From an uncultured Armatimonadia bacterium (GTDB lineage Bacteria; Armatimonadota; Zipacnadia; CAZGSV01), in NCBI GenBank assembly GCA_964528605.1, contig CAZGSV010000002.1:14563-78562 (forward strand): 64,000 bases of DNA, given 5' to 3'. Position numbers and translations under genes: made by a program. Under the pieces are notes generated by a model. That model was given only the letters and a program-made list of their open reading frames with translations, ran no database searches and had not been told where the DNA came from. This document shows, piece by piece, positions 39,230 through 57,102 of this stretch (positions within the stretch are counted from its first letter, which is position 1; each line of letters starts with the position of its first letter).

Positions 39230-40167
39230 GATTTTCCCACTCGTTTGGTAAACTCATCTGCGCTTGGCCGAGTGAAAAGGAAATGCTCAGGGAACACGAT
39301 CCTTTCATAGAGCAGGACAGCATTCTCGAGGCGCAACCGCCGCAGCCTCAGAATGGTCGCAAGCCCACACCGGCCGAGCAGGCGCGACTAAGCGCATTCC
39401 ACGGGGACCAGTCCATGCGGCGGGGGCAGTTCGACGAAGCGGTGGGCTTCTACAAGCGGGCGGCGGAACTGGACGGCAACGACGGGCGCTGGCAGGTAAG
39501 TCTGGGCGACGCCTACGTGAGCACCGGGTATTACCGCAGGGCGTACAAGGCCTATCAGCGCGCCATCAAGAGGAACCCTCAGGACGCCGACGCCCACTTC
39601 TCGCTGGGCGAGTTGCTGGCTCGCACTGGAGCCTTTGAAGAGGGCATACCCGAGATCAGCGAGGCGATACGGCTGCTGCCCGGGCGACACTACTATCTCT
39701 ACCGCCTTGCCGGCATCTGCTGGGCAGCGGGAATGCGGCAAGAGGCGATCCAGGCGCTGCGCAGCGCGGTGCGGCTCAATCCGCAGGACGCGTTCTACCG
39801 CTACAAACTCGCCCGGTTGCTGGCGGAAGAGGGCCATCACCGGGAAGCCAACGCCCAGTTCCAGCACGCCGCGTCTTGTGCCCCGCAGGACTCTTACTAC
39901 CGCCTCTGGTTGGCCATCTCGTTCGTGCAGCTACGCCGCATAGAGGACGCGCTGGAGGCGGTGCACGAGGCGCTCCGCATCGAGGAATGGCGGGAGCCGA
40001 CCTTGCTGGTGCTGGCGGCGTTGCTCCACCGGCTGCTGGGGCGCCACGACACCGCGCAGGCCTATATGCGTCGCGCCCCCAGGCTAACCGAGTACGACCG
40101 GCACTTCCTGCGCTTCGTCACTCAAGCCGCGGGCCCGCTGGCGGCCCTAGCGACCGAAGGGCTCTAG
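39226..40167 (+). CDS. Tetratricopeptide-repeat protein.
   Basis: It has repeated TPR units (AVGFYKRAAELDGND, AYKAYQRAIKRNPQDADAHFSLGELL...). Confidence 0.6.
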   Translation: MRFSHSFGKLICAWPSEKEMLREHDPFIEQDSILEAQPPQPQNGRKPTPAEQARLSAFHGDQSMRRGQFDEAVGFYKRAAELDGNDGRWQVSLGDAYVSTGYYRRAYKAYQRAIKRNPQDADAHFSLGELLARTGAFEEGIPEISEAIRLLPGRHYYLYRLAGICWAAGMRQEAIQALRSAVRLNPQDAFYRYKLARLLAEEGHHREANAQFQHAASCAPQDSYYRLWLAISFVQLRRIEDALEAVHEALRIEEWREPTLLVLAALLHRLLGRHDTAQAYMRRAPRLTEYDRHFLRFVTQAAGPLAALATEGL

Positions 40168-40230
40168 GCGCCCCGCTCTCGGACCCGTTCCGTCTCAGGT
40201 CGCCGGCAAGGAACCGCGCGGCGTCGGGAC

Positions 40231-40845
40231 TCAGGTCTTGGTGGAGACCAGGCTCCGCACGCGCTCGTAGTTGATGCGGACGGTGCCGTCCTCGGGGTGC
40301 AGGCGGTTGAGTTCGGCCCACAGGTCTAGGGCATCCTGCAGGCGGCCGGCCTTTTCATAGGCGTGCGCCAGCTTCTTCTCGACCTGGTAGCCGTCATGAA
40401 GCCTCTTGACTGCCTCGGTGAAGGCCTCCACGGCCTTGGGGAAGTCCCGGCGGTTGACCGTGTAGTAGTCGCCCAGGTCCTCCCAGACGTCCTCGTTCTC
40501 GGGGTTGGCTAGCGCGCAGCGCAGGTAGACGGCCACGGCGTACTCGTGCTGGTCTGAACTCCACAGCAGATACGCGGCGTCGAGGTAGGCCTGCACGAAG
40601 TAAGGATCAATCCGCGTCGCGGCCAGGTTCAGCACCATCGCGCCTCGGTAGTCGCCTTCGTGGAAGCACTCATCGGCTGCACCCCAGAAGGCGTCCACGA
40701 CCAGCGCGTCCATGACCTGCGCCGGAGCGGGCCCCTGCGCTGCCGCCTCAGCGCAACATGCGGCAAGGCAGACGATGAAAACCACGGTGAAGAGCAGCAA
40801 TGCCCGCATGTCTATGAGTCTAGCCGTGGTTGGCCGCCGAGGCAA
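40231..40845 (-). CDS. Secreted TPR-repeat protein.
   Basis: It has the signal MRALLLFTVVFIVCLAACCAEAAAQ and TPR-like repeats. Confidence 0.6.
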   Translation of the reverse strand: MPRRPTTARLIDMRALLLFTVVFIVCLAACCAEAAAQGPAPAQVMDALVVDAFWGAADECFHEGDYRGAMVLNLAATRIDPYFVQAYLDAAYLLWSSDQHEYAVAVYLRCALANPENEDVWEDLGDYYTVNRRDFPKAVEAFTEAVKRLHDGYQVEKKLAHAYEKAGRLQDALDLWAELNRLHPEDGTVRINYERVRSLVSTKT

Positions 40846-40860
40846 GGGCGGCCCGCCCGC

Positions 40861-41871
40861 TTAGGGCTGGGCGGAGTCAGCCACTTGCTCGAGCAGCGAC
40901 TGGGGCAAAGAGCCGACCACCACAATCCAGAGCGGGCCGCGCTCCCGCACCACCACCATTGGGGTCGTCGGCAAGCCTCGCGTGCCGCCGCCGCCGGTGC
41001 CTTGGCGCTCGAACACCGACACGAAACTGAAGATGTCCGTGTAGCGCAGCCAGGCCACCGGATGGCCGCGGAAGCGCAACAGACAGGCATCCTGCAAGAA
41101 GAAATCCTCGGGCAGCCACTGAGGCGGCGCCAGGTGGAAGTCGAGTCGCTTGGCCACTTCGGCAACGTCGGCGGAGCGGAATACGGGCGTCGGTTCCCGG
41201 CTCACTCGGGTGCCCCGGGGCGGCTCGAAGGCGAACAACTCGTCAGGTGGCGCCTCCGAGGGGAAGGACACCTCGAGATAGCGCTCTTCGCCCAGCGGCG
41301 TCCCGTCCGGCGCGAAGTGCTGCCGCAGCAGGGGAACCCACTGGTCGGCGTCCACCCAGTACTTGCGGTAGGTGCGAGGCGGGCGGCGGCGCACCAGTTG
41401 CACCACGTGCGCGCGCCGGCCGAGGAGCGACCGAATGCCGAAGTAGCGAACAACAAAGGCGTCGGGCACGCGGCTGACCCACTCCGCGCGGCGCCGCGCT
41501 ATCAGTTCAGCGTCCGCCGCCTGCGTCGACATCGCCCAGGCTCCCTGGCGGTCGTAGAGCCACCGAGTCACGCCGTCAGAGATCAGCAGCCGCGTGGGGA
41601 CGCGTTTCTTCCCGAGAAACTCGATGCGGTACTTATGCCCGGGCGCGCGCACGATGCGCTGCACCAAGCGGGCCCGGGGCTGCGGAAGCCCGGTGACGCG
41701 GACACCAGCCAGGTTCACCTGCCCCTCCCTGGCGAAGACTTGGCGCAGGACGTTGAGTCCCTGCTCCTGCTCGCGCTGCAAGTCCTGCCCCAGCGCCAGG
41801 CGTACGCCCAGGGGGACCAGCGCAATGGCGGCGGCCAGTGCTAGGAGCCTAAGGAGCCCTCTGGTCCTCAT
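40861..41871 (-). CDS. RseB/MucB-like (LolA-fold) protein, the third gene of the ECF sigma operon.
   Basis: An internal ATG at 41871 gives the signal/anchor MRTRGLLRLLALAAAIALVP. Its position downstream of the anti-sigma gene suggests an RseB-like role. The family call is tentative. Confidence 0.45.
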   Translation of the reverse strand: MRTRGLLRLLALAAAIALVPLGVRLALGQDLQREQEQGLNVLRQVFAREGQVNLAGVRVTGLPQPRARLVQRIVRAPGHKYRIEFLGKKRVPTRLLISDGVTRWLYDRQGAWAMSTQAADAELIARRRAEWVSRVPDAFVVRYFGIRSLLGRRAHVVQLVRRRPPRTYRKYWVDADQWVPLLRQHFAPDGTPLGEERYLEVSFPSEAPPDELFAFEPPRGTRVSREPTPVFRSADVAEVAKRLDFHLAPPQWLPEDFFLQDACLLRFRGHPVAWLRYTDIFSFVSVFERQGTGGGGTRGLPTTPMVVVRERGPLWIVVVGSLPQSLLEQVADSAQP

Positions 41872-42328
41872 AAGCCGCCGGCATGAAACTCTCGTCCGCG
41901 CCCACCAGCGCCTCACCCTCGGGCAGCGCGGAGTGGTTGGAGACGCAGAAGCCCGCGAACGCCGCCAGGTCGTTTCTCGAGGGAGCAGCAGGCTGGGAAT
42001 GGAAGTAGCCGATGAGGCCGCCCACAATGAGCATGGCGACCACACCCGCCGCGCTCAGGGCGAACCGCCAACTGAGCCTCCGCGAAGGCGCCGCAACCGA
42101 GCCGCTCTCGATCCTCGCCATCACCCGCGCCGTGAGGCCGGGCCGCGGCTCGGGGTGCAGAGCCAGGCTGCTCAGGCGGCGCGCCTGCACGAGGTCCTCC
42201 GCGGCCAGAGCGCACTCCGGGCAGGCCCCGAGGTGCTCCCCCACCGCCCGCGACTGAGGCCGAGGCAGCCGGCTGTCCGTATACTCGAGAAGCATCTTAC
42301 GGGCTTTCCCACAACGCATCCGCTCCAC
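41849..42328 (-). CDS. Zinc-finger anti-sigma factor (single-pass membrane).
   Basis: It has MRCGKARKMLLEYTDSRL...HLGACPECA (the zf-HC2 anti-sigma motif) and a central TM helix. It overlaps the upstream sigma gene. Confidence 0.65.
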   Translation of the reverse strand: MERMRCGKARKMLLEYTDSRLPRPQSRAVGEHLGACPECALAAEDLVQARRLSSLALHPEPRPGLTARVMARIESGSVAAPSRRLSWRFALSAAGVVAMLIVGGLIGYFHSQPAAPSRNDLAAFAGFCVSNHSALPEGEALVGADESFMPAAYEDQRAP

Positions 42329-42917
42329 CTCCTGTCGCAGCAGTCGCCAGCGCCGTCCCCTGCGCTACGTATGGTTCCAGCAGCCGGCGCAGAGCCCGGC
42401 GGGCCGTGAAAAGGCGTGACTTGACCGTGCCCACAGGGCAGTGCTCGACCTCCGCGGCCTCCTGGTAGGAGAGGCCCTCCAGGTCGCACAGCACCAGAAT
42501 GGCGCGAAACCTTTCGGGAAGCGCCGCTATGGCTAGTTCCACCTGCTCGGCGAGTTCCTGTTGGCTCGAGCGGCCGAGCGGATCGGCGGAGGCGCCTTGC
42601 GCGGGATGGTCAACAACAGCGGTAAGCGGCATCAGTCGCCTTCGCCCGCCCTCGCCGCTTCGCTGGTAGTCAATGCACAGGTTTCTGGCGATGCGGTAGA
42701 GCCAGGTCTTGAAGGAACAGGCGGCGCGGAACGCCTTGAGGCTGGCGTAGGCCCGGACAAAGGTGTCCTGCGTTAGGTCCTCAGCGGCCGTGGCGTCCAA
42801 CACGGAGCGCAGAACGTAGCGGTAGATCTGTCCTTGGTACCTCTCCACCAGTTCTTCAAATGCTCGGCGGTCACCGCCTTGCGCCTGCCGAACTAGTGTC
42901 CCATCGTCGCCGGGCAT
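42297..42917 (-). CDS. ECF-subfamily RNA polymerase sigma-70 factor.
   Basis: Region 2 is FEELVERYQGQIYRYVLRSV...DLTQDTFVRAY and region 4 is LPERFRAILVLCDLEGLSYQEAAEVEHCPVGTVKSRL. The start is the internal ATG at 42917. Confidence 0.85.
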   Translation of the reverse strand: MPGDDGTLVRQAQGGDRRAFEELVERYQGQIYRYVLRSVLDATAAEDLTQDTFVRAYASLKAFRAACSFKTWLYRIARNLCIDYQRSGEGGRRRLMPLTAVVDHPAQGASADPLGRSSQQELAEQVELAIAALPERFRAILVLCDLEGLSYQEAAEVEHCPVGTVKSRLFTARRALRRLLEPYVAQGTALATAATGGGADALWESP

Positions 42918-42999
42918 CTGCACCTGCTTTCCTTTTGGGCTGGCAGGCCGCGCGCAACCATATTGACGGCCGGCCAGCACAAAAGTTCGCCCTCATAGG

Positions 43000-44010
43000 T
43001 TACGGTACCAAGTCTATCCCATCCGGGCGCGGTTTGAACCTGACCGCCCGAATGGCAGACCCGGGCCCCTCCTCGTAGTAGACGCAGAGCACCACGCCGT
43101 CCCGCAACTCGACCATGCTCGGATAGGCCCCGCCCACGTGGTCCAGCACGAACGGGCCCTGCCAAGTCTGCCCCAGGTCCGCGCTGAGGTGCAGGCTGGT
43201 TTCAGGCAGGCGGTGGGCCAGAAGCAGAAGGCCGGAGGAGTGGACCAAGGCGTGGGGACAATGGCCCGGAAAGCCCGCCTCCCGCACCGTCCAGGTGTGG
43301 CCCTGGTCGGAGGAGAAGGCCAGGCACATGCAAGGCCGGAGCGCCGTGAACAGCCTGCCGTCGGGCAGGCGGATGATGTGGGGCTCGGCGTCGTGCCGGT
43401 GGGTGCTGGTGGTGTCAATGATGGTCAGTTCGGGCCAGGTGCGGCCCCCGTCGAAGGACCGGAGCAGGCCCGCCTTGGCGCTGGAGGGAATCTCGTAGTA
43501 GACGGGCAGGAGCAACTCGCCCGAGGGCAGTTCCGTGATGGGCGCGGAGCAGGCGAAGTTGCCTTGTTGAGTGACCTCAGGGAAGTGAGGCTCGGACCAG
43601 GTTTTGCCCAGGTCGTTGGACTCCACCACAGCGACATGGAATCCCGCCGCCTCGGTATAGGTGAAGAAGTTGCAGAGCAGCCGGCCGTCGGAGAGTTGCG
43701 TGACAGAGGGGTCCCGGTCGTCGAGCGGAGTGTCCACGACGACGGTGGGGTCGCTCCAGGTGCGACCCTCATCCGACGAGCGAACCGCGCAGATGCGAGC
43801 GCCGCGGGGCAGGCTCTCGTTGGGCAGCGATACGTGGCCATACCCGGCGTAGAACACGCACAGCAGTTCTCCGTTGCTCAGGCGGCAGATATCGGGGAAA
43901 GCCTGATAGCCGCCCGCCCCCGCATCGCGAACCACCACTTGGTAAGGAGGCTGAACCTGACCCACCGCGGCCAAGGCAAACACGCCCGCCGCGCCCAAGA
44001 ATGCGCTCAC
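43000..44010 (-). CDS. Secreted BNR/Asp-box repeat protein (sialidase/GH33-like beta-propeller).
   Basis: It has five Asp-box motifs (SDEGRTWSD, SNDLGKTWS, SFDGGRTWP, SSDQGHTWT, SADLGQTWQ). A GTG start at 44010 gives the signal MSAFLGAAGVFALAAVGQ. The upstream part of the track ORF is antisense to the next gene. Confidence 0.65.
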   Translation of the reverse strand: MSAFLGAAGVFALAAVGQVQPPYQVVVRDAGAGGYQAFPDICRLSNGELLCVFYAGYGHVSLPNESLPRGARICAVRSSDEGRTWSDPTVVVDTPLDDRDPSVTQLSDGRLLCNFFTYTEAAGFHVAVVESNDLGKTWSEPHFPEVTQQGNFACSAPITELPSGELLLPVYYEIPSSAKAGLLRSFDGGRTWPELTIIDTTSTHRHDAEPHIIRLPDGRLFTALRPCMCLAFSSDQGHTWTVREAGFPGHCPHALVHSSGLLLLAHRLPETSLHLSADLGQTWQGPFVLDHVGGAYPSMVELRDGVVLCVYYEEGPGSAIRAVRFKPRPDGIDLVP

Positions 44011-44051
44011 TGCCCTAGCACCGCCTTTCGCCCACGAATCCCGGCCCGACC

Positions 44052-44894
44052 CTAGAAAGCCGCTTGCCACACCTTGAGCAGCGCGGCGCCCGCCGTGGTC
44101 AGCCTTTCCTCTTCCGGTAGGGCCTGCAACTCCTTGCTGAAGGGCTCGGGAGCGACCGGGCCGGTGTAGCCAATCTTCTCCAGCGCCCGCAGGAAGCCGA
44201 CTAAGTCTATGACTCCCGTTTCGCCGGGCAGGCGGCGCACATTGTCCACCTGCTCCTCTATGGGAATGCCGGCGGGCGCGTCGTTGATGTGGACGTAGAC
44301 GACTTGCTCGTCTCTGAGCGTCTCCAACTGTTCCACGGTGCCGCCGGAGGTGTACCAATGCCAGGCGTCGAGCAAGAGGCCGACATTTCCGGTGCCCACG
44401 GCATCGCAGAGTTCTAGCATCTGCTCCATGGTATGAATGAACTCGTACTTGTGGCCCGCACGCGAGGTCTTGGGCCCGAGGAACTCCAGGCCAAGCCAGC
44501 AGCCGTTGTCCGCGAGAATCTCCGCCGCCGGACGCACGCGCTTCATCAGGAAGGCGGCGTTCTCGGCGTAAGGCCTTTCGTCGGACCAAGAGGGAATCCA
44601 GGTTGCGGCGCGCGTGTAGGCGATGGAGGCTGCGGCCGCGGTGACCGGCAGCAGCCGCTCAAGTGCCTCCTCATAGGCCGCCTGCTCATCGAAGAAAGGC
44701 GCCGGCAGCCCCCAGCCGCCCAGGACCATGTCCGCGCGCTCCAAAGCCTCCACCACCTTGTCCCGGAACGCCGGGTCAAGCAGTTGCCGGGCGTCAACGT
44801 CTATCCCTTCGAAGCCCGCGGCGCGCGCCGGCGCCAGCGCCTCAAAGAACGGCTTGCCATATCCGATTGCTCCTGGACTGAGGTTCTTGAACAC
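44052..44894 (-). CDS. Sugar phosphate isomerase/epimerase (xylose isomerase-like TIM barrel).
   Basis: It has the LGLEFLGPKTS...HINDA pattern of the AP_endonuc_2 TIM family. Confidence 0.8.
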   Translation of the reverse strand: MFKNLSPGAIGYGKPFFEALAPARAAGFEGIDVDARQLLDPAFRDKVVEALERADMVLGGWGLPAPFFDEQAAYEEALERLLPVTAAAASIAYTRAATWIPSWSDERPYAENAAFLMKRVRPAAEILADNGCWLGLEFLGPKTSRAGHKYEFIHTMEQMLELCDAVGTGNVGLLLDAWHWYTSGGTVEQLETLRDEQVVYVHINDAPAGIPIEEQVDNVRRLPGETGVIDLVGFLRALEKIGYTGPVAPEPFSKELQALPEEERLTTAGAALLKVWQAAF

Positions 44895-45072
44895 GGCTCA
44901 TTCCTTCCTTGCTGTCTGGGGTTCGGGAGCCCTCCGCCGGCCGGCCCTCGATTGCGCGGCATTGTGGGCTGGCCATGGGCAAAGGTCAAGCGTGACGAGA
45001 CGGCTGCCGTGGCCGCGAGGTGCTGCTATAATCGGGGCTGCCAGCGTCAGCATCTGATGGGAGGTCTCAGCC

Positions 45073-45600
45073 ATGCCAGTGTTGGAGGCTATTCAGAAGC
45101 GGTACAGCGTGCGCGCGTATCAGGACCGTCCGGTTGAGCCCGAGAAACTGGAGCGGATCATGGAGGCGGCCCGCCTCGCGCCCTCGGCGGGCAACAGGCA
45201 GGATTGGCGTTTCATCATCGTGCAGGACCACGCTAGGCGGCAGGCCCTGATGCGCGCGGCCAAGGGACAGGCGTTCGTGGGCCAGGCGCCGGTGGTGATC
45301 GCGGCGTGCGCGGAGGGCCCTGACCACGTGATGACCTGCGGCCAGTCCATGCACGCGATTGACGTTGCCATTGCTTTGGAGCACCTCGCCCTGCAGGCGA
45401 CGGCGGAAGGCTTGGGGACGTGCTGGGTGGGCGCCTTCGACGAGGCCGAGGCGAAGGCGGTCCTCAACGTGCCGGCGGACTCGCGGGTAGTGCAGTTGAT
45501 GCCGCTGGGCTACCCGGCGGACGAGGCGCGCCCCAAGAGCCGCAAGGAACTCAAAGAGATCGTGATGTACGAGGCCTGGGGCGTCCACACGGCACCGTAG
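45073..45600 (+). CDS. Nitroreductase family protein.
   Basis: It has the RYSVRAYQDRPVEPEKLERIMEAARLAPSAGNRQDWRFIIV nitroreductase signature. Confidence 0.85.
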   Translation: MPVLEAIQKRYSVRAYQDRPVEPEKLERIMEAARLAPSAGNRQDWRFIIVQDHARRQALMRAAKGQAFVGQAPVVIAACAEGPDHVMTCGQSMHAIDVAIALEHLALQATAEGLGTCWVGAFDEAEAKAVLNVPADSRVVQLMPLGYPADEARPKSRKELKEIVMYEAWGVHTAP

Positions 45601-45633
45601 GTCGCGGGGGCCATTCAGCACGCGGTCGATTGT

Positions 45634-46089
45634 CTAGGCCTTCATCAGCTCTGGATGGTCTTGCCGCAACCAGCCTATGACCTGCCGCTTGAACTGCCCG
45701 AGGTCACCCACCAATTCCTCAACTTCCCTCTCCGTGGCAGCCGGGATCGCATCGTAGACCACATCGCCGCGTCGTCGCCGGCACCGATGGTAGTAGCGGG
45801 AACGGTCGATCTGCGCGGCGCCCATTATGAGGGGCAACGCTTCCACCACCACCTGATGCTGGCCCTCCCGGCCCACGGCTCTGCAGCCGGCCGCGCGCAG
45901 CGCCACCGTACAGAGCAAGCGCGCCGCGTCCCAGGCCGCAGCGAACCGCCACTCTGCCGACTGGTCAACCTTGGCGTCTTGGATGCGCTCCGTTGCCTTC
46001 CCTAACAGCCCCGCGATCTCCCGTGCGCTTGCCGGCTGCTCGGCCAGTCTTCCTTCTGCTACCAACGCGCTCAAGGTCACCTTCCTCAC
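45634..46089 (-). CDS. HEPN-like protein, a probable toxin partner of the upstream wHTH-MNT gene.
   Basis: It is alpha-helical and has an Rx4H-type motif (RSRYYH). It lies immediately downstream of, and overlaps, the MNT gene (the usual MNT-then-HEPN order). Confidence 0.45.
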   Translation of the reverse strand: MRKVTLSALVAEGRLAEQPASAREIAGLLGKATERIQDAKVDQSAEWRFAAAWDAARLLCTVALRAAGCRAVGREGQHQVVVEALPLIMGAAQIDRSRYYHRCRRRRGDVVYDAIPAATEREVEELVGDLGQFKRQVIGWLRQDHPELMKA

Positions 46090-46771
46090 CCCGCACCATC
46101 AACTTCGGCCCCTTCCAGACCGCGTCCACGAAATGGTCTCGGTTAGCCAGGCGCCCACTGAACTCCTCGCTGCCCATCACCACGGGGCTGATCTGTCGCG
46201 CCAGTGCCTCCTCCAAAGGGCCCAACACTGGCACCAGGTCGCGCAGGCCAGCTTCGCCCACCACAAAGAGATCAATGTCACTGTCAGGCCGCGGTGTGCC
46301 CTCCGCGAAAGAACCATATATGAAGGCGACCCGAATGCCTTCGAGTGCCGCGAGGGCCTCGCGCACCCTGTCGACAAGCCCCACGGTCTTGATCATAATG
46401 GACCGCAACTCGGGCAATATGGGGCAGGAGGTGTTGGCCCGGTACACCACTTCTCGGCCGTGCTTCCTGCGCTCCAGTACGCCCATCGCCGCCAGAGCGC
46501 CGAGATGATAGGAGGCGACCGTGGGAGCCACACCCACCCGGGCTGCGGCCTCCGACATGTAGAACCCGCGATCAGGGTTCAGCAGGAAGAGCCCCAGGAG
46601 TGCCTCTCTGGCTCGTGAGAAAAGGCCAATCCCGGAGGAGCCTCCCTTTCCGGGTGGTCTACCGTGGCCCGGCTTCGCGCGACGCCGGGTGACCCTCACC
46701 AGGCTGCTACGGGCGGGGGCTCGGCCGCGTTTCCCCCCCTGCTCAGCAGACTCCCGCATTCTTGGTGACAA
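45965..46771 (-). CDS. Winged-HTH (ArsR-like) domain fused to a minimal nucleotidyltransferase (MNT).
   Basis: The HTH is LGLFLLNPDRGFYMSEAAARVGVAPTVASYHLGALAAMGVLER. The NTase motif is IYGSFAEGTPRPDSDIDLFVVGE. The exact start is uncertain. Confidence 0.65.
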   Translation of the reverse strand: MSPRMRESAEQGGKRGRAPARSSLVRVTRRRAKPGHGRPPGKGGSSGIGLFSRAREALLGLFLLNPDRGFYMSEAAARVGVAPTVASYHLGALAAMGVLERRKHGREVVYRANTSCPILPELRSIMIKTVGLVDRVREALAALEGIRVAFIYGSFAEGTPRPDSDIDLFVVGEAGLRDLVPVLGPLEEALARQISPVVMGSEEFSGRLANRDHFVDAVWKGPKLMVRGEEGDLERVGSRRKTGRAAGKRTGDRGAVREGNGAHPRRQG

Positions 46772-46867
46772 CTGCGCTCTCCCTTCTCTTTCTGCCGCAG
46801 TCTACTCCAGCGCCGTTCGGCATTCTCTGGAACGATTCAGGGCGAGGTTCCCCAAAAGCACTCGCCC

Positions 46868-47122
46868 ACCATTCACTGCAACTTTCCCGAAAGTATTTCA
46901 GCATTTTTCGTAGGATTCGGTCAACCCTTTCGAAAACATTCGCTACACTCTTCGTACAATTTACTGCAACTTTTCCTAAAATACTTTAGCATTTTTGCAG
47001 AATTGGGGAAGACGGTTTCAAGAACGTCTGCTGCATTGTTCGTACAGTTTACTGCAACTCTTTCTAGAATACTTTAGGATTTCTTGTACAATCTGCTGAG
47101 CTCTTTCGAAAGCATTTGCCGG
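46868..47122. repeat. Three imperfect ~85-bp tandem direct repeats in a sharply AT-rich (~40% GC) tract.
   Basis: The units begin at 46868, 46951 and 47039. They share TTYACTGCAACTYTTYC and ARTAYTTYAGSATTTYT blocks and a TTGTACAA palindrome, in a ~67% GC background. Confidence 0.7.
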
Positions 47123-47287
47123 TTTTGCGGGGTGCTTACCGTAACTCCTGCGCGGATGGTCGGCCTTCTGCGGCAGACGCGCAGTTCTCTACCTGCAACC
47201 GCAAAGAACGATAGAGCAGGCCAAAAGCCTGTGTGCGCCGCGCCAAACCGCCACGCTACCGAGGGATGGAGAGGTTCGGGCCGGCGC

Positions 47288-48487
47288 TCAGGCCTCCGGC
47301 GGGATGAAACCGAAGTAGCGGCCCGACCAGTAGGCGCGCAGGAAGTACCTAGGCACGCCCTCCAACACGACCTCCACCATCCGCTCCTTGCCCGGAAGCC
47401 CCAGGAGCGACGCAGGAAAGGCCTGAACCGAGGAACTGTACTTGGGCACTTCGTGCAGGTACGGCCTCTTCGCCCGCTCGCGCGTGGCCGGCCGACGCGC
47501 CAGCGTGTAGTCGAAGTCACTGACCTCGAATGAATGCAGCCACTCCCAAGTCTCCTCCGCAATGGGCGCCCTGGGGTGAAAGGCCTTGTAGGTCCAGTTG
47601 AAGAGCGCGTCGTGCATATGCCTGGCGCGCGAGCCTCGCCACTGGGCCTGCAGCGCCCGATAGTAGTAGCGAAGGAGCCCGGGATCCGTCTCGTAGCAGA
47701 GGAGAGTGTACAGAGGGCACATGGCGAGGTTGTAGTCCCACTCGGACGGCTCGGGGTTCGTCTCCGTGTTGGCGCGCGCGGCGATCTTGTGGTAGCCCCA
47801 CTCTTGGATCAGACGCTGGTACTCCCTCAGGTAGCCTCGCTTCTTGGTGATCTGGTAAGCGCCGCGCAGATGGCTCAGGGCCTGCAAGGCGTTGAGATTC
47901 TCTTCTAGTACTAGCGGCGACATGTTGCCCCAAAGGGTCATGCGCCCGTCCACGTCCACGATGCGCATGCCCTGGTCCACGATGCGGCGCATGACGAGGT
48001 CCACGTCCTTGGCTATCTGGCGCTTCTCCTTCGCGTCGGCCACCAGGTCGCAGTAGAGTTCGTAGCCGAACATCAGGCCGACGAGAGAATCCGTGCTCGG
48101 GTCGCCCAACCAGCGGTATTCGCCCGCCTGATGCCACTCGCGCGGAAAGAAGAAGGCCTGCTCGTCCCAGGTGGCCCCGTTGCCACGCTTGAAGCCGCGC
48201 GCAAAGCAGCCGTCCGTGCGCGTGACGCGCTGGAGCATGCGCAGCGCGCGAGCGGCCGTGCGAGCGCGCTCCTTCGCCTTGGGATCCCTCGTCGCTGCCC
48301 AACGGAAGGCCTGAGTCGCGAGATACATCCCGGTCGAGAGCGCGTCGCTTTCGTGGTTGCCGGTGGAGTAGTCCGGCAAACCGATCGGCGGCAACACCAC
48401 TAGGGCTCGAATCTGCCCCTGGTAGGTATGACGCTCCTCGAGCATCGCCTCGCACAACATAGCCTTCTCATAGAGAGTCATGGGCAT
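47288..48487 (-). CDS. Uncharacterised conserved protein, paralog A of a four-copy tandem array (399 aa).
   Basis: It shares the blocks MxxTLYEKAxLCEA, LPPxGLPDYSTGNHExDA, FFFPREWHQAG, YRWxGDPSTDSL, VDVDGRMTLWGNM, YYRALxxQW and LRAYWSGRYFGFIPPEA with the three other paralogs. Confidence 0.8.
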   Translation of the reverse strand: MPMTLYEKAMLCEAMLEERHTYQGQIRALVVLPPIGLPDYSTGNHESDALSTGMYLATQAFRWAATRDPKAKERARTAARALRMLQRVTRTDGCFARGFKRGNGATWDEQAFFFPREWHQAGEYRWLGDPSTDSLVGLMFGYELYCDLVADAKEKRQIAKDVDLVMRRIVDQGMRIVDVDGRMTLWGNMSPLVLEENLNALQALSHLRGAYQITKKRGYLREYQRLIQEWGYHKIAARANTETNPEPSEWDYNLAMCPLYTLLCYETDPGLLRYYYRALQAQWRGSRARHMHDALFNWTYKAFHPRAPIAEETWEWLHSFEVSDFDYTLARRPATRERAKRPYLHEVPKYSSSVQAFPASLLGLPGKERMVEVVLEGVPRYFLRAYWSGRYFGFIPPEA

Positions 48488-48635
48488 CCCGCCACCTCAC
48501 AGGGCCCGGGCCCGCAGGTTAGGTCGCGGCAGCCGCGTCGTGGGTAAACCGCGACGCTACCGGGCGTTGGCAACACATCCGCGTCGTGGGTGCACCACGA
48601 CGCTACCGCCAGGATGGAAAGGTTCGGGCCAGCGC

Positions 48636-49790
48636 TCAGGCCTCCGGCGAGATGAAGCCGAAGTAGCGGCCGGACCAGTAGGCGCGCAGAAAGGCTCGCG
48701 GCACTACCTCGGATACCGCCTCGATGACCTTGCGCTTGCCGTTGACCACAAGTTCGAACTTGCGCTCCTGCACCGGCGGCTTGAGGGCGTCCGCCGTGAC
48801 CTTGGCCGGGAACTCCCGCGCCCCTAGGTCCGTCGTCTCCAGCCACTGCCAGGCCTCCGCCCGCATGGGCGCCCGCGGATGGAGCGCCTTGTAGACCACG
48901 TTGAAGAAGGCGTCGTTGGGGCCGTTCGCGTAGGTGCGCTTCCACTGCACCTCCAGAGCGCGATAGTAGTAGCGCAGCAAGTCCCCGTCGGCCTCGTAAC
49001 GGAGGAGCGAGTAGAGGGGCGAGACCGCCAGATTCCAGTCGTGAACCGCGGGCGGCGGGTCGTCCTGCGCATTGGCCAGCGCGGCCCTCTTATGGTAGTC
49101 CCACCCGTCAATCAGGCGGTGATACTCGTCCAGGTAGCGCCGCTTTTTGGTGATGTGATGGGCGGCGCGCAGGTGGCTGAGGGCCTGAAGCGCGTTCAGG
49201 TTCTCCTCGAGAATGTAGGGGTTCATGTTGCCCCACAGCGTCATGCGCCCGTCCACATCGAGCACGCGCATGCCGTTGTCCACGACGTGGCCCATGATGA
49301 GGTCCACGTCCTTGGCGACCTCGGCCTTCTCCTTGGCGTCGGCGACCAGGTCGTGGTACTGCTCGTAGCCGGACATTAGGCCCACGAGGGAATCGGTGCT
49401 GGGGTCCCCGACCCAGCGATACTTCCCGGCCTGATACCACTCACGCGGGAAGAAGAAGAACTGCTCGTCCCAAGTAGGGCCGTCGGCGCGCTTGAAGCCG
49501 CGCGCGAAGCAGCCCTTGCTACCGGTGAGGCGCTGCAGTTTGCGCAGCGCCCGCGCCACCGCTTTCGCTTGGCGCTTGGCCCGCGGATCCTTGGTCGCGG
49601 CCCAGCGGAAGGAGAGAGCCTCTAGATACATCCCGGTGGCCAGGGCATCGCTCTCGTGGTTGCCGGTGGAGTAGTCCGGCAGCCCCGCCGGCGGCAGGAT
49701 GACCTGCTGCCTAACCTGCCCCTCGTAGTAGTGCCTCCCCTGGACCAGGGCCTCGCACAGTATCGCCTTCTGGTAAAGAGTCAGAGCCAT
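48636..49790 (-). CDS. Uncharacterised conserved protein, paralog B (384 aa).
   Basis: It is colinear with A, C and D at about 55-65% identity by eye. Confidence 0.8.
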   Translation of the reverse strand: MALTLYQKAILCEALVQGRHYYEGQVRQQVILPPAGLPDYSTGNHESDALATGMYLEALSFRWAATKDPRAKRQAKAVARALRKLQRLTGSKGCFARGFKRADGPTWDEQFFFFPREWYQAGKYRWVGDPSTDSLVGLMSGYEQYHDLVADAKEKAEVAKDVDLIMGHVVDNGMRVLDVDGRMTLWGNMNPYILEENLNALQALSHLRAAHHITKKRRYLDEYHRLIDGWDYHKRAALANAQDDPPPAVHDWNLAVSPLYSLLRYEADGDLLRYYYRALEVQWKRTYANGPNDAFFNVVYKALHPRAPMRAEAWQWLETTDLGAREFPAKVTADALKPPVQERKFELVVNGKRKVIEAVSEVVPRAFLRAYWSGRYFGFISPEA

Positions 49791-49990
49791 TCTCTCACCT
49801 CATGATTCTCGGTTCGGTGGTTTGCCGTCGCGGGTAAACCGCGACGCTACCGACATGCGCGAGCGGATGCTGCACAAACTCCTTACAGGCGGACGCAGAA
49901 CAGCCACACCGAATCACGCACGAGGCGAATGGCTGCCTCCCTCGGTGCTCCGCGCCACAAGCCAGAGCGGGTACGCCGGGGTCAGACGAC

Positions 49991-50206
49991 CTACCGCGCT
50001 GCGACTAAGTTCTCCAGATGGATCTGCTTGTCCCTCAGGCCGGGGATGACCTCGCTGGCATCGAGAACCTCGATCCCCACCACCCGCTCCCCGGGCCCAA
50101 TGTCAACGGCAACCTGGTCGTTGAGCCGGATAACCTGACACTCGGTCGGCTCCTCGACAAACCGAATGTAGAGCGCGTCCACCGAGGGGTCGTAGGTTAT
50201 CTTCAC
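49991..50206 (-). CDS. DUF2283 family protein, the antitoxin partner of DUF4258.
   Basis: MKITYDPSVDALYIRF... is the canonical DUF2283 N-terminus. It is 71 aa and lies immediately downstream of the DUF4258 gene. Confidence 0.75.
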   Translation of the reverse strand: MKITYDPSVDALYIRFVEEPTECQVIRLNDQVAVDIGPGERVVGIEVLDASEVIPGLRDKQIHLENLVAAR

Positions 50207-50221
50207 GGCTCGCTCACTTCC

Positions 50222-50485
50222 TCAGAAGTAGTATACATGGACCGTGACCACCGTGCATTCGCCGCGCTCCAGAACCACAATAGGCGCCACCTGCTTGACC
50301 GCGCACCACTTCCCACGCCACAGGGCATTGAGCGGGAAGTTCTTGCGAAACATCACGCGGCCCTTGCGGCAGGCCTCGGGCTCTCCTTGGCGTATCGCGG
50401 TGATGACGTCCTCCTCCGAGGCTCCCCGATCAGCCATTCTGACGCGGGCGTGCGGGCTGATCTCTATTGTCACGTCGGCGCTCAA
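50222..50485 (-). CDS. DUF4258 family protein, the toxin of a DUF4258/DUF2283 TA pair.
   Basis: It has HARVRMADRG...VITAI and a C-terminal VVTVHVYY, which is the DUF4258 pattern. It is 87 aa. Confidence 0.7.
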   Translation of the reverse strand: MSADVTIEISPHARVRMADRGASEEDVITAIRQGEPEACRKGRVMFRKNFPLNALWRGKWCAVKQVAPIVVLERGECTVVTVHVYYF

Positions 50486-50523
50486 GGCCTCGCCTCACAA
50501 CACGGCGGGAGAACGACTCACGC

Positions 50524-51678
50524 CTACGCCTCCGGCGGGATGAAGCCGTGATAGCGGCCCATCCAGTACGCGCGCAAGTACCCCGTTGGCGCGCCCTCGA
50601 CCACACCTTCAATCACCCGCGGCCGGCCGTCAATGACCACCTCGAACTTGCGCCTGTGCGCGATGGGCTTAGGAGCGCTCGGCGTCGGTGAACCGGGATG
50701 CTCCGGCTCGCCGATCTCAAAGGCGTGCAGCCAGTCCCAGGTCTGCTTGCGAATGGGAGCGCGCGGGCGCAGCGCCTTGTAGGCCCAGTTGTAGAAGGGA
50801 TCGTCGCGCCCAGCCGCCTGCACGCCCTTCCACTGCACCTCTAACGCGCGGTAGTAGTGGCGGAGCAGGCTCTCGTCCTTCTCGTATTGCAGTAAGAGGT
50901 AGAGAGGGCACGTGGCCAGATTCCAGTCCCAGGGCGAGGGCACCGGAGAGGCCTGCGCGTTCGCCAGGGCCGCCTTCTTATGGTAGTCCCACTTCTCGAT
51001 CAGCCGACGATACTCCCGTAGGAAGAGGCGGTTCTTGGTCATGTGATAGGCGCCCCGGAGGTGGCTGAGCGCCTCCAGCGCGTTCAGATTCTCCTCCAGT
51101 ATGTAGGGGTTCATGTTCCCCCACAGCGTCAAGCGGCCGTCCACGTCCACGATGCGCATCCCCTTCTCCACGATGCGGCCCATGAAGCCCTCGACGTCCT
51201 TCGCCACTTCCTTCTTCTCCTTCGCGTCGGCGACGAGGTCGTAGTACAGTTCGTAGCCGAACATCAGCCCGACCAGCGAGTCGGTGCTCGGATCGCCCAC
51301 CCAGCGATAGTTGCCGGCCTGGTGCCACTCGCGCGGGAAGAAGAAGACCTGCTCGTCCCAGGTCGGCTTGTCGGCGCGCTTGAACCCGCGCGCGAAGCAG
51401 CCTCTGACCCCCGTTACCTGCTGCAACTTCCGCAGGGCGCGCGCGGCCTCTTGCGCGCGTTGCTTTGCCTTGGGCTCACGCGTGACCGCCCAGCGGAAGG
51501 ATTCGGTCCCCAGATAAGTTCCTGTCGAGATCGCATCGTCCTCGTGGTTGCCGGTGGAGAAGTCGGGCAGCCCGGCGGGCGGCAGGATGACGTGATTGCG
51601 CACCTGTCCCTGGTACCCGTGCCGTTCCTCCATTACCGCCTCGCACAGCAGCGCCTTCTCGTACAGACTGAGAGCCAT
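50524..51678 (-). CDS. Uncharacterised conserved protein, paralog C (384 aa).
   Basis: It has the same conserved blocks as paralogs A, B and D. Confidence 0.8.
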   Translation of the reverse strand: MALSLYEKALLCEAVMEERHGYQGQVRNHVILPPAGLPDFSTGNHEDDAISTGTYLGTESFRWAVTREPKAKQRAQEAARALRKLQQVTGVRGCFARGFKRADKPTWDEQVFFFPREWHQAGNYRWVGDPSTDSLVGLMFGYELYYDLVADAKEKKEVAKDVEGFMGRIVEKGMRIVDVDGRLTLWGNMNPYILEENLNALEALSHLRGAYHMTKNRLFLREYRRLIEKWDYHKKAALANAQASPVPSPWDWNLATCPLYLLLQYEKDESLLRHYYRALEVQWKGVQAAGRDDPFYNWAYKALRPRAPIRKQTWDWLHAFEIGEPEHPGSPTPSAPKPIAHRRKFEVVIDGRPRVIEGVVEGAPTGYLRAYWMGRYHGFIPPEA

Positions 51679-51917
51679 CTTGTCACCTCGTAGTGCGGAT
51701 GATTGCGGCCGACGGGCGGCACTGTAGCGCCGCAGACGGTGTCTTTCAAGGCGGTCGTGGGGATGTATGGCCCGCCCCTACTTCCGCGGCGCCGCCAGGG
51801 GCCGCTGCGCAGGGGCGAGGCGCCTGCCTCACCCGCTGTCCTGTAGGAGCGGCATTCTTGTTCACCCGCCTCAGGAGGGCCCCCAGTTCGCAGCGGCGAG
51901 CCGTGGGCTGGCGCGCG

Positions 51918-53072
51918 CTAGGCGTCGGCAGGTATGAACCCGTGGTAGCGGCCCATCCAGTACGCGCGCAGATACGGGGTGGGCGCCCCCTCGACCGCCG
52001 CCTCGATCACCTGCACCTTGCCGCCCACCTCCAACTCGAAGCGCTGCTTCCTGTCCACCAGCGGCGGCGTAAACGGGCTGGGTGAGCCCGGGTGTTCCGG
52101 GTCCCCAGGTTCATAGTCACGCAGCCACTGCCAGGACTCCTTCGGGATGGGCGCCTCCGGGCGATAGGCCTTGTATGCCCAGTTGAAGAAGGGGTCACGC
52201 AGGTGCTCGCGCCGCACCCCGCGCCACTGGATCTCCAACGACCGGCGGTAGTAGGCGAGCAGGCTTGAGTCGGTCTCATACTTCAGCAGCGGGTAAAGGA
52301 TGGACATCGCCAGGTTCCAGTCCCACGGCGACTCGCCTGGCTCCTTGTTCGCATTGGCGCGCCCCGCCCTCTCGTGATAGCCAAAGTCCCGGATCAAGCG
52401 GTGGTACTCCTGCGGGAAGCGGCGCTTCTTGGTGATGTGGTAGGCGCTGCGGAGGAAACTCAACGGCTCCAGCGCGTTCAGGTCTTCCTCAAGGATGACC
52501 GGACACATGTTGCCCCACATGGTCATGCGCCCGTCTGCATCCACGATGCGCATGTTGGCGTCCACGATCTTCCCCATGATGAGGTCAACGTCCTTGGCCA
52601 CTTGCGCTTTTTCCTTCGCATCCGCGACCAGATCGTAGTAGAGCGCATATCCGAAGATGATGCCGGCGAGGGAGTCAGTCATGGCGTCACCCACCCAGCG
52701 GTACTCGCCCGCTTGGTGCCACTCGCCCGGATAGTAGAAGAACTGCTCATCCCAACTGGGGCCCCGGCCGCGCTTGAAGCCGCAAGCGAAGGCGCCGTCG
52801 CTGCCGGTGATGCGCTGCAGTTCGCGCAGCGCCCGCGCCGTCTGCCGCGCGCGTCGCCTGGTCGCAGCATCCTTAGTGACGGCCCAGCGGAAGGACAGGA
52901 CGCCTAGGTAGGTGCCGGTGGAAATGGCGTCGTCTTCGTGGTTGCCGGTGGAGTAGTCGGGCAGCCCGACGGGAGGCAGGAGCACGTGGGTTCTGACCTG
53001 CCCCTCGTAGTTGTGCCGCTCGTCCATTACCGCTTCGCAGTGCAGCGCCTTCTCGTAAAGCGTGTGGGCCAT
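51918..53072 (-). CDS. Uncharacterised conserved protein, paralog D (384 aa).
   Basis: It has the same conserved blocks. It is closest to paralog C in the C-terminal third (GDPEHPGSPxP). Confidence 0.8.
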   Translation of the reverse strand: MAHTLYEKALHCEAVMDERHNYEGQVRTHVLLPPVGLPDYSTGNHEDDAISTGTYLGVLSFRWAVTKDAATRRRARQTARALRELQRITGSDGAFACGFKRGRGPSWDEQFFYYPGEWHQAGEYRWVGDAMTDSLAGIIFGYALYYDLVADAKEKAQVAKDVDLIMGKIVDANMRIVDADGRMTMWGNMCPVILEEDLNALEPLSFLRSAYHITKKRRFPQEYHRLIRDFGYHERAGRANANKEPGESPWDWNLAMSILYPLLKYETDSSLLAYYRRSLEIQWRGVRREHLRDPFFNWAYKAYRPEAPIPKESWQWLRDYEPGDPEHPGSPSPFTPPLVDRKQRFELEVGGKVQVIEAAVEGAPTPYLRAYWMGRYHGFIPADA

Positions 53073-53213
53073 TTCTCAACCGCACCCCTTCCTCGTTGAC
53101 TGGGGACAGCGTGGGGTCAAGTCTAGCGAGGAGGCGGCGGCGGTTCAACGGCAACCCGCGCTCGGCCCCGATAGATCGCGCCAGGCATGGCGCTCCTACG
53201 CGGATGGGCGGGC

Positions 53214-54311
53214 TTAGGCCGGCGACGAGGAGAGCATCTGCGCGATGCGCTGCTCCTCGTCCGCCTGCTGCAGGTGCTGCAGCAGGTCCTCCAACTCACC
53301 ATCGAGGATCTGCTCGAGGTTGTGGGTGGTGTAGTTGATGCGGTGGTCGGTGACGCGGTTCTGCGGGAAATTGTAGGTGCGGATCTTCTCCGAGCGGTCA
53401 CCGGTCTTGATTTGCGCCCGTCGAGTGGCCGCGATCTCCTGCTCCTGCTCCGCCATTTTCTGCTCGAGCAAGCGGGCGCGCAGCCAGCGCATGGCCTTCA
53501 CCTTGTTCTGCAGTTGGCTGCGCTCGTCGCTGCACTGCGCCACCAGGCCCGTGGGCACGTGCGTAATGCGCACGCCGGTCTCGTTCTTCTGCATGTGCTG
53601 CCCGCCCGGGCCGCCCGCGCGGAAGGTGTCTGTGCGCAGGTCGTTGGCCTCTATCTTGACGTCAACTTCCTCCGCCTCCGCCAGCACCGCAACGGAAGCG
53701 GCGGAGGTGTGCATGCGGCCGCTGGCCTCGGTGACCGGCACGCGTTGGACGCGATGCACGCCGCTCTCGAAGGAGAGCAACCCGTAGGCGCCCTTCCCCT
53801 CCACGGCCAGCGTGACTTCCTTGTAGCCGCCGAGGCCGGTCGGGCTGGCGTCGAGCGCTTGCAGTTTCCAGCCCTTGCGTTCGGCGAAGCGCGTGTACAT
53901 CCGACAGAGGTCGGCGGCAAAAAGGGCCGCCTCCTCGCCGCCCGTGCCGGCGCGGATCTCAACGATGGCGTTACGGTCCCAGTTGGGGTCTCTGGGAAGC
54001 AGGCGGCGCCGCAACTCGCTCGCCAGCGACCCCACTTCTCCGTGAAGTTCCTCGAGTTCGCCGCGCGCCATCTCCGCGGTCGCTTCGTCGAGGTCGCCCT
54101 GCCGCAGCATCTCTTCGGTGGTGCGCACTTGGCGCTCGGCTTGCTGGTAGCGGTCGTACAACCCGAGCAGTTCGCTCAGTTCCGCCCGCCGCCGCGCCAG
54201 TTCGCGGTAACGGGGCAGGCCCCCGGTGACCGCCGGGTCAGCCAGGCGCCCCTCGAGTTCTCCGAGTTCCTTGCGCGCCTTCTCTAGTTGCTCGATGAAC
54301 TGGTGCAACAT
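53214..54311 (-). CDS. prfA: Peptide chain release factor 1.
   Basis: It has the PVT tripeptide anticodon motif ([15 protein letters not shown]) and the GGQ motif ([22 protein letters not shown]). Confidence 0.85.
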
Positions 54312-54331
54312 TTCGCTTCTCGACCACCAGG

Positions 54332-55261
54332 TTACCCAGCGGCGCCGGCTTGCTCCGCTGCGCTTTCGCTCCCGACGGCGGCTTGTTCCGCTTCCGCGCG
54401 CCGCACCTCGTTGAACGAGCGGATGGCGACCTCCACCTGCCCGTCATCGGGCGCGCCCGTGGTGAGGCGCTGTAACCACAAGCCGGGCACCACCATCCAG
54501 CGCAACACTCCCAGGTCGGGCCGGCGCGCCGCCGCTTTGATCACTTCGTAGGAGATGCCGCCGATGATCGGCAGCAGCAGCAAGCGCAGCAGTATCCTGC
54601 CAACGAAGTGACCCCAGGGCAGCGCCGCGAACACCACCAAGGTCACCAGCAGCACCACTACAATGAAGTTGGTGCCGCAGCGCTCGTGAATGGAACTGAA
54701 CTGCTGCACGCGCTCAACCTCCAGCGGCACTCCCGCCTCGAAGGCGTTGATGGTGCGGTGCTCCGCGCCGTGGTAGCGGAAGATGCGCCGCACGTCCTTC
54801 AGCCGGGAGACGGCGAGAAAGTAGAGCCCGAAGATGGCGAAGCGGATCAACCCCTCGATAGTGCTCACTTGCCATGAGGCCTGGATGTCGAGCCAGTGCT
54901 TGGTTCCCGCCGCGAGGCGCTCGGGGATGAAGAGGAAGAGGAGCAACGCCAGCAAGGCGGCGGTGATGGAGGTCCAGGGCGAGGTCGGCTTGTCAAGCAG
55001 GGCATTGGCGGACCACTGGATCGCCCAGATGCCCAGCCGGAGCGTGTCATAGAGAGCGACGACCCCACGGAGGACAGGCTTGTTCAGCGACGGGTAGCGC
55101 GTCGCAAGCGAATCAACCGGCCGAACGGTGATGACGATCTCGCCCGACTCCTTCCGGACTGCCACGGCGCACGTCTCGCGGCCTCGCATCATCACTCCCT
55201 CGATCACCGCCTGCCCCCCGTAGGGGGACGGGGCGGGGTGATGCGCGGAGCCCTCCGACAT
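54332..55261 (-). CDS. DUF1385 (YqhQ-like) membrane protein.
   Basis: GGQAVIEGVMMRG...YHGAEH is the DUF1385 signature. It is often found near rpmE and prfA. Confidence 0.75.
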   Translation of the reverse strand: MSEGSAHHPAPSPYGGQAVIEGVMMRGRETCAVAVRKESGEIVITVRPVDSLATRYPSLNKPVLRGVVALYDTLRLGIWAIQWSANALLDKPTSPWTSITAALLALLLFLFIPERLAAGTKHWLDIQASWQVSTIEGLIRFAIFGLYFLAVSRLKDVRRIFRYHGAEHRTINAFEAGVPLEVERVQQFSSIHERCGTNFIVVVLLVTLVVFAALPWGHFVGRILLRLLLLPIIGGISYEVIKAAARRPDLGVLRWMVVPGLWLQRLTTGAPDDGQVEVAIRSFNEVRRAEAEQAAVGSESAAEQAGAAG

Positions 55262-55272
55262 CGGGGAACGGG

Positions 55273-55515: not shown

Positions 55516-55578
55516 TGAACCGACCTCCTGGAGCCACCATTTTCGCACATTGCGGACCTTCGCGTCAAAGGGAGCGGG

Positions 55579-56904: not shown

Positions 56905-57102
56905 TTCCCTTCGCGCTCTGGCTCACAGGGGCCGTTGGCATCCCAGGTCAATATACGAAACCAGGTGCCTGCCGCCAAAAGGCACGAGTGGGCGAGACGC
57001 GAGCCGTTAGTCACTCGCCTGGACCGCCCGGGCCCTGCTCCGCCAATGAATTCGCCCTCGGCGGGGCCGAGGGCGAATCGGTGGCTATCCGGAAGCCCGG
57101 GG

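Follow-up and report, generated by a model that had tools for sequence, protein, structure and literature searches.

An AT-rich array of three 88-bp direct repeats as a candidate enlarged promoter-operator region of a wHTH-MNT toxin-antitoxin cassette in an uncultured bacterium

Winged helix-turn-helix (wHTH) antitoxins of toxin-antitoxin (TA) systems can regulate their own expression, as in AbiEi from Streptococcus agalactiae and Rv2827c from M. tuberculosis, both of which bind inverted repeats, arranged in one or several sets, within their own promoters; two repeat sets with complex cooperativity are found in Rv2827c, and cooperativity in these two systems can be positive or negative (PMC7319586). 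Here we describe an AT-rich array of three direct repeats (46868-47131, strand not assigned) within a 64,000-nt stretch of DNA from an uncultured Armatimonadota bacterium (contig CAZGSV010000002.1; hereafter the window), situated directly upstream of a gene for a wHTH protein with a minimal nucleotidyltransferase (MNT) domain. Like AbiEi and Rv2827c, the locus has a wHTH-bearing TA protein encoded just downstream of repeated, palindrome-containing DNA, and a twin-palindrome operator overlaps the promoter in relatives of the protein. Unlike AbiEi, the protein is an ArsR-type wHTH fused to an MNT nucleotidyltransferase and has no AbiEi fold, and in contrast to both systems the sites in the window, where binding is predicted, extend across 264 bp in three 88-bp units rather than ~40-60 bp and carry palindromes that vary by unit. 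The gene pair itself is closest to the HepT/MntA (HEPN-MNT) type VII systems, to which it adds a wHTH and an atypical partner; as those systems are summarized in the literature, they share with our locus an MNT protein gene just upstream of, and overlapping, the gene for a small helical partner (PMC7641770, PMC11586414). A repeated upstream array did not come up in the titles and abstract openings of a HepT/MntA literature search. With moderate confidence, we read the array as an enlarged, amplified 5' promoter-operator region of the wHTH-MNT/HEPN-like TA cassette, in which unit 1 would be the working promoter and units 2 and 3 auxiliary operators.

A repeat search resolved the array into three direct repeats with start-to-start distances of exactly 88 and 88 bp: unit 1 at 46868-46955, unit 2 at 46956-47043 and unit 3 at 47044-47131, with a GC content of ~0.40. 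The AT-rich island of three direct repeats in the original prediction was therefore real, but its period of ~85 bp and its starts at 46951 and 47039 gave way to a period of 88 bp and starts at 46956 and 47044. Self-identity of 46860-47135 was maximal at a shift of 88 (0.61, z 4.5) and was 0.55 at a shift of 176, against a background of 0.26 +/- 0.08. Identity among the three whole units was 61-67%, which is why Tandem Repeats Finder did not report the array; a conserved 41-bp core had 83% and 68% identity to that of copy 1, and neighbouring copies were 81% identical over a 67-nt stretch. The block said to be shared by each repeat was recovered as the 17-mer TTYACTGCAACTYTTYC, which occurred with up to three mismatches at 46872, 46960 and 47048, compared to 0.29 matches expected in the whole window. 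GC content of the array was 0.38-0.45, compared to 0.60-0.73 in the rest of the window, where no other 300-bp bin fell below 0.595, making the array the sole AT-rich spot within 64 kb. A more degenerate partial copy had been proposed to precede 46868, but its alignment score of 16 (shuffle mean 13.5) was equalled or bettered by 176 of 1000 shuffles, and a fourth, partial repeat was not supported on either side of the array. The same three units were found in a second, independent Logan contig (L002) with 99.9% identity over 1893 bp. The array sits between the stop of a 399-amino-acid (aa) paralog gene (47288-48487, minus strand) and the 268-aa wHTH-MNT gene (45965-46771, minus strand), and lies upstream of the latter, 97 bp from its TTG start at 46771.

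Each 88-bp unit resembles two 44-bp halves (identity at a shift of 44 was 0.41, z 2.0), and conservation was unevenly divided between them. In the very AT-rich A-half (minus strand; 46868-46911 in unit 1, 46956-46999 and 47044-47087 in the others) 28 of 44 columns were invariant and GC content was 0.27-0.39, compared to 15 of 44 columns and a GC content of 0.45-0.50 in the B-half (minus strand; 46912-46955, 47000-47043 and 47088-47131; Fisher p 0.01). The A-half also contained a 9-nt invariant run (permutation p 0.045), and its consensus on the MNT-sense strand was AAAAATGCTaAAgTAyTTTnGGrAAAGTTGCAGTrAA. This unevenness bears on the main rival to a promoter-operator, namely a neutral relic in which slippage or unequal crossing-over duplicated a control region whose extra units are now decaying, leaving units 2 and 3 idle. 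Conservation concentrated in one half is unlike uniform decay, and a relic would also have to account for the exact 88-bp register, which runs through all three units without indels, and for the presence of all three units in the second sample. We regard such a relic as a serious but distinctly less probable explanation, and return below to the observations in its favour.

The strongest link between the array and the TA genes came from a sister strain represented by L003, an 88-kb JGI contig that has the gene order of the window and carries a close MNT allele. The two sequences were 98.5% identical over 47231-57083 and 99.3% identical over 40001-45590, whereas inside 45591-47230 only the MNT coding region could be aligned, at 72%. 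This variable cassette of 1.64 kb (minus strand; counterpart at 9859-11105 in L003) contains the array, the leader, the MNT gene and its partner gene. Its left breakpoint is ~57 nt past the stop of paralog A, the 399-aa gene, and its right breakpoint coincides with the 3' end of a convergent nitroreductase gene. The array is thus part of a TA cassette that was exchanged as one piece between near-identical chromosomes, and since the sharp divergence is limited to 45591-47230, it is tied to the TA genes and not to a plasmid, a mobile element or a dispersed repeat. An MNT gene directly after a 397-aa paralog was also found in the more distant L005, L086 and L087; as this is the same chromosomal position, the locus is old and its alleles turn over.

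The same comparison largely refutes a remnant of an integrated plasmid or mobile element, in which the array would be a set of iterons, an origin of replication or a partition site; this was one of the candidates of the original prediction, and we now give it next to no weight. AT-rich DNA with direct repeats would suit such a site, as would the GC content at third codon positions (GC3) of the cassette genes, which at 0.71 and 0.78 is below the 0.85-0.88 of their neighbours. However, the variable DNA amounts to only 1.64 kb with two TA genes and no rep, par or integrase gene, on either side lie the nitroreductase and paralog genes, which are chromosomal and conserved, and more distant relatives have the TA gene at this same site in the chromosome. 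The array contained no DnaA box with up to one mismatch and showed no GC-skew turn. It had no blastn match in 72,556 plasmids and 50,697 phage records, and a degenerate 27-nt core pattern was absent from IMG/VR viral contigs. The suggestion of horizontally acquired DNA holds in part: a divergent cassette with lower GC3 was exchanged, but only the regulatory array is AT-rich, a feature that accordingly reflects the composition of a promoter-operator and does not mark foreign DNA. Within the sequence searched, the repeat is locus-specific. No further copy was present in the 64-kb window, to which the search of the source genome was limited, and among 185,579 species genomes the 27-nt pattern gave one chance match, in what looks like a reading frame of a Bacillota metagenome-assembled genome with 30% GC. 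Over this range, a dispersed repeat resembling repetitive extragenic palindromic (REP) sequences or miniature inverted-repeat transposable elements (MITEs) was rejected.

The position of the array is equivalent to that of the operators in related loci. In addition to the identical copy of the MNT protein in L002, we found three close alleles at 62-68% protein identity, with only 142-199 bp upstream that hold one AT-rich module. This module consists of two TTTAC-N7-GTAAA palindromes 21 bp apart (L005 4005-4065; L086 285-345), which are degenerate in L003. In L005/L087 it reads CTTTACAAAAGCGGTAAAC-TA-CTTTACAAACAGGGTAAAC and is almost identical in L086, and in L003 it reads TATTTACACAGAATGTGAAATA-CTTTACAATTGCGGTAAAATG; the modules of these alleles are compatible with TTTACA-17-TACAAT/TACAAA promoters. 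We extended the comparison to a distant set of 80 family loci from metagenomes, at 35-48% identity. In 72 distant loci, 13 strong local direct repeats occurred within 200 bp upstream, and 11 of them had a period of exactly 21 bp. Each 21-bp repeat was a 17-19-bp palindrome at a distance of 50-80 bp from the gene; its centre is rich in A and its arms vary with the subfamily, as in GTCTACAAAAAGTAGAC, GTTCCCAAAAAGGGAAC and GTACCCAAAACGGGTAC. Loci with such palindromes 50-80 bp upstream of the MNT match were L031, L036, L016, L010, L012, L029, L056, L077, L007, L039, L054 and L049, the last of which has three palindromes, not two. In L031, L016 and L010, the examples that we read, the palindrome pair overlaps a promoter of the TTGACA-17-nACAAT type. 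The motif TTTAC-N5-9-GTAAA was absent upstream of the distant relatives because the operator arms differ between subfamilies. Judged from these sequences, a twin-palindrome layout with 21-bp spacing is the norm of the family, and it is what would typically be expected of an operator through which a dimeric wHTH protein regulates itself.

Modest similarity connects the array units to this compact module. The best local alignment of the array and the L003 core paired AATG-TGAAATACTTT with AATGCTGAAATACTTT (unit 1) at a score of 25, above the maximum of 23 obtained in 500 dinucleotide shuffles. In the same test with L086 and L005, the observed score was reached by 18/500 and 40/500 shuffles, respectively. 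Palindromes of unit 2 (CTAAA-GTAT-TTTAG, CTAAAGTATTTTAG; 46976-46989) and unit 3 (TTCTAGAA; 47062-47069) were aligned by MAFFT to the central GTAAA-CTAC-TTTAC of the relatives, as were TTGTACAA to their CTTTACAA and TTGTACAAG of unit 3 to their CTTTACAAAAG. Descent of the array units from an ancestral compact operator module is probable rather than proven.

A candidate promoter could be read by eye in unit 1. It comprises a candidate -35 element TTGACC (46919-46924, minus strand), laid out as the TTGACA/TTGACT elements of distant relatives, and, 18 bp after it, a candidate extended -10 element TGcTGAAAT (46895-46903, minus strand). Directly downstream of this -10 is the perfect palindrome ACTTTC-GG-GAAAGT (ACTTTCGGGAAAGT; 46881-46894, strand not assigned), which is a candidate primary operator. 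The order of -35, -10 and palindrome is that of the compact promoters of the family. Host promoters in the window are sigma-70-like, with TTGAGT-17-TATACT before the signal recognition particle (SRP) RNA and TGtTAGAAT before a tRNA. Unit 2 has a homologous TGcTAAAGT (46983-46991) that resembles an extended -10, and a good -35 on the MNT-sense strand is confined to unit 1, being absent from units 2 and 3. Transcription from the putative promoter TTGACC-18-TGcTGAAAT would give a leader of ~118 nt, which includes a GC-rich inverted repeat GGGCGAG-N14-CTCGCCC (46840-46867, minus strand) between the array and the MNT gene, with no U-tract after it. Each B-half also carries a palindrome (TTTCGAAA at 46928-46935, AGACG-N10-CGTCT at 47010-47029 and CTTTCGAAAG at 47103-47112), with centres exactly 88 bp apart at 46931.5, 47019.5 and 47107.5. 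The palindrome TTGTACAA (strand not assigned, as for the unit 2 and unit 3 palindromes above), which had been attributed to every repeat, was exact only once, at 47084-47091; the corresponding sequences of the other units are TTCGTACAA and TTCGTACAG, and degenerate versions lie at the unit junctions 46949-46957 and 47037-47045.

We postulate that a compact ancestral promoter-operator, with two palindromes 21 bp apart over a sigma-70-type promoter, was duplicated, first as a segment of ~44 bp and then into three 88-bp units. Unit 1 would have kept a usable promoter, the expected start site of which would coincide with the palindrome ACTTTCGGGAAAGT, and units 2 and 3 would have lost the -35 and kept the AT-rich, operator-like half. 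The winged HTH of the MNT protein, probably in an oligomeric complex of MNT and partner, would repress its own operon by binding to the operator-like halves. Since 88 equals 8 x 11 bp, the units may lie on the same face of the helix, an arithmetic argument by which the copies 88 and 176 bp upstream could serve as auxiliary sites for cooperative binding or looping. Auxiliary operators are well known from the lac (O1/O2/O3), gal, deo and lambda OL-OR systems, where an operator at the promoter is combined with in-phase copies tens to hundreds of bp away and an oligomeric repressor binds them, which increases its local concentration and the cooperativity. The role proposed for units 2 and 3 at +88 and +176 bp is comparable; in contrast, the auxiliary sites of those systems are discrete operators and not whole duplicated promoter units, and looping at our locus would follow only from the arithmetic of the 88-bp period. 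The type of operator is itself known, and what would be new in the array is the expansion of a TA promoter-operator into three phased units.

Several observations weigh against this promoter-operator reading. The array contains no 21-bp twin palindrome, having instead 88-bp units with palindromes that differ from unit to unit, and its half-site spacing is stretched, with TTTAG-N11-GTAAA in the window compared to TTTAC-N7-GTAAA in the relatives. A comparable long-period array was found at none of the ~75 other family loci examined, so that nothing indicates repeated selection for arrays of this kind. A strict consensus promoter scan of both strands gave no matches, and the TGAAAT of the candidate -10 lacks the key A at position 2. 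Nhmmer with a profile of the three units found nothing upstream of the MNT genes of relatives, and blastn(-short) of the intergenic DNA of relatives against the whole window stayed at noise level (E 1.6-6.4); because these unbiased searches found nothing significant, the claim of homology rests on alignment in a restricted space together with position. Finally, the recognition helix of the wHTH-MNT protein is unlike that of its relatives at five positions (PTVASYHLGALAAMG vs PRVASYNLQALSRMG), and because of this its specificity may be altered or weakened, so that the protein may bind another target or bind poorly. Comparison favours an operator array for the winged-HTH protein, one of the candidates put forward originally, through the shared cassette, the position and the modest similarity, but the array departs from the layout of the family.

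Some of these points are what a neutral relic would predict. Whole-unit identity of only 61-67%, palindromes that were not kept between units, the absence of a -35 from units 2 and 3 and the absence of any such array at other family loci are all as expected if duplicated units are decaying, and the cassette is a fast-evolving, exchanged allele. Set against the uneven conservation and exact register described above, they leave the relic the less probable reading, and the amplified promoter-operator remains the one we favour.

Alternatively, the array might be a platform for another factor, such as an unrelated regulator, or a nucleoid-associated or silencing protein with a preference for DNA that is AT-rich, phased or curved, in which case the wHTH-MNT protein would not be the binder. 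The array is the sole AT-rich tract in 64 kb, its AA/TT periodicity is maximal at 11.0 bp (88/8), and the recognition helix in the window lacks residues conserved in relatives, all of which would suit such a factor. The 11-bp peak is, however, a harmonic of the 88-bp repeat and not independent evidence, and can be taken as suggestive only. The array also travels with the TA cassette and resembles the operator module of the relatives, and no candidate protein was identified. We consider this alternative unlikely.

Tandem direct repeats immediately upstream of a TA operon are also a feature of ToxI arrays. ToxI-type repeats are ~34-48 nt in length, nearly identical and transcribed, are followed by a terminator, and pair with toxins of the ToxN/AbiQ type. 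The units in the window are 88 bp, 61-67% identical and precede an MNT gene, and show no stable conserved fold. In a further alternative, the array would consist of tandem RNA units, either transcribed small RNAs, as the original prediction had it, or a ToxI-like RNA that acts as antitoxin to, or substrate of, the HEPN-like partner. The location upstream of a TA-like operon would suit this explanation, and hexamers resembling a -10 are present in the minus strand (TGcTAAAGT) as well as in the plus strand (TAAAAT and TAGAAT, there lacking a -35). The fold of the whole array had a z-score of -2.4 on the minus strand. However, RNAalifold on the three units gave weak consensus folds on the two strands (-4.7 and -2.9 kcal/mol) to which covariation contributed practically nothing, and a terminator consensus scan had no matches. 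Rfam 15 at gathering thresholds, applied to the whole window, identified nothing in the array, and matches to 46600-47400 allowed up to E 10 were at chance level (E 3-8). The conserved palindromes TTTCGAAA and TTCTAGAA are loopless, as in double-stranded protein sites and unlike RNA hairpins, and the repeats are missing from relatives that carry the same genes; type III antitoxin repeats, moreover, are generally near-identical. Small RNA genes in tandem are accordingly very unlikely, and a type III ToxI-like array was set aside given the 88-bp units, their low identity, the weak fold, the missing terminator and the neighbouring genes, which encode an MNT protein and a HEPN-like partner. Slightly less probable still is a hybrid of types VII and III, in which the array is transcribed as a long leader and its units are RNA ligands or substrates of the HEPN-like partner; in a weaker version, the array would be a multi-copy decoy whose titration of an oligomeric MNT-partner complex makes autoregulation respond as a sharp switch. 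A CRISPR array was rejected, in agreement with the original prediction: the whole 88-bp unit is repeated, including the part that would be a spacer, no unique spacers are present and the cores are 68-83% identical. The only match to a CRISPR direct repeat (E 3) lies outside the repeats.

The protein that would bind the amplified promoter-operator is encoded by the wHTH-MNT gene as an ArsR/SmtB-type winged HTH followed by an MNT domain. Both of these domains were recovered by Pfam and profile searches. Pfam matched NTP_transf_2/Polbeta at E about 1e-8 and HTH_20 at E 2.6e-4, the latter under the gathering score, and a family profile matched SmtB/ArsR structures (E 2e-5 over profile positions 7-79) as well as the MNT antitoxins 8xeh and 5yep. 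The GS...D.D motif of MNT proteins is present as YGSFAEGTPRPDSDIDL, with G107, S108, S118, D119 and D121 invariant. The TTG start at 46771 is preceded at a distance of 7 nt by the Shine-Dalgarno sequence AAGGGAG (46779-46785, minus strand), as the TTG start of the L003 counterpart is by GGAGG at 9 nt, and gives the protein a basic N-terminal tail similar to those of its closest relatives. The public gene call P0001 (197 aa) uses an internal ATG start that cuts into the winged HTH (46558-46771 affected); TTG 46771 with AAGGGAG fits the basic tail of the relatives better than the start of P0001.

The partner gene (45634-46089, minus strand, 151 aa) overlaps the MNT gene by 125 nt and encodes a HEPN-like four-helix protein, the HEPN identity of which is weakly supported. 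Pfam matched HEPN_SAV_6107 in the L003 orthologue only (E 0.05), and the best Foldseek matches of a single-sequence AlphaFold model (pLDDT 73.9) were HEPN domains (prob 0.98, E 0.15, TM 0.46-0.55). The Rx4-6H motif was not conserved: RSRYYH in the window corresponds to RSRAYD and RAKYYD in relatives, with H101 replaced by D. An RRRR at residues 104-107 of the partner is invariant. The pair thus resembles HepT/MntA in that its MNT domain matches the MntA/MNT antitoxins and the model of its partner is nearest to HEPN domains. It differs in the N-terminal ArsR-type wHTH and basic N-terminal tail of the MNT protein, and in a partner that has marginal HEPN matches and lacks the conserved Rx4-6H motif. 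From the model and the motif, the partner may be an atypical or non-catalytic HEPN protein.

Upstream of the cassette are four tandem paralogs on the minus strand (47288-48487, 48636-49790, 50524-51678 and 51918-53072), which encode 384-399 aa and have ~70-73% DNA identity. They matched no Pfam family, with a weak GH127 match on one, and a search of 5.8 billion proteins returned only 33 homologues; the distant ones (36-40% identity, 604-680 aa) have an FGE-sulfatase (PF03781) domain. The 3' ends of paralogs A and B, together with ~35 nt past the stop (47247-47345 and 48594-48693), are 88-90% identical, compared to ~72% in the gene bodies, pointing to gene conversion at this site or to a 3' element common to both; paralogs C and D do not share this similarity. 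A TA-like pair of small DUF2283/DUF4258 genes (49991-50206 and 50222-50485, minus strand) lies inside the paralog array and is conserved in L003 and L005. RF-1 (53214-54311) was 99% identical to a sister metagenome contig, 70-75% identical to three sequences and <60% identical to named taxa, with matches spread over many phyla. The window also encodes a large (Bacillus-type) SRP RNA at 18521-18797. The host is a member of an uncultured, deep-branching lineage.

None of these findings overturns current ideas. If the promoter-operator reading is correct, the array would be a natural case of a compact two-site TA operator that has grown into a phased three-unit array. The sister alleles in the compact state would then allow a direct comparison of how operator copy number and spacing affect autoregulation in TA and defence systems. 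The locus also documents the swap of a TA cassette allele between 98-99% identical chromosomes of an uncultured, deep-branching bacterium. Beyond this organism, the 21-bp twin-palindrome operator found across the family allows DNA targets to be predicted for many MNT antitoxins that are still uncharacterised, and may outrank the array in general use.

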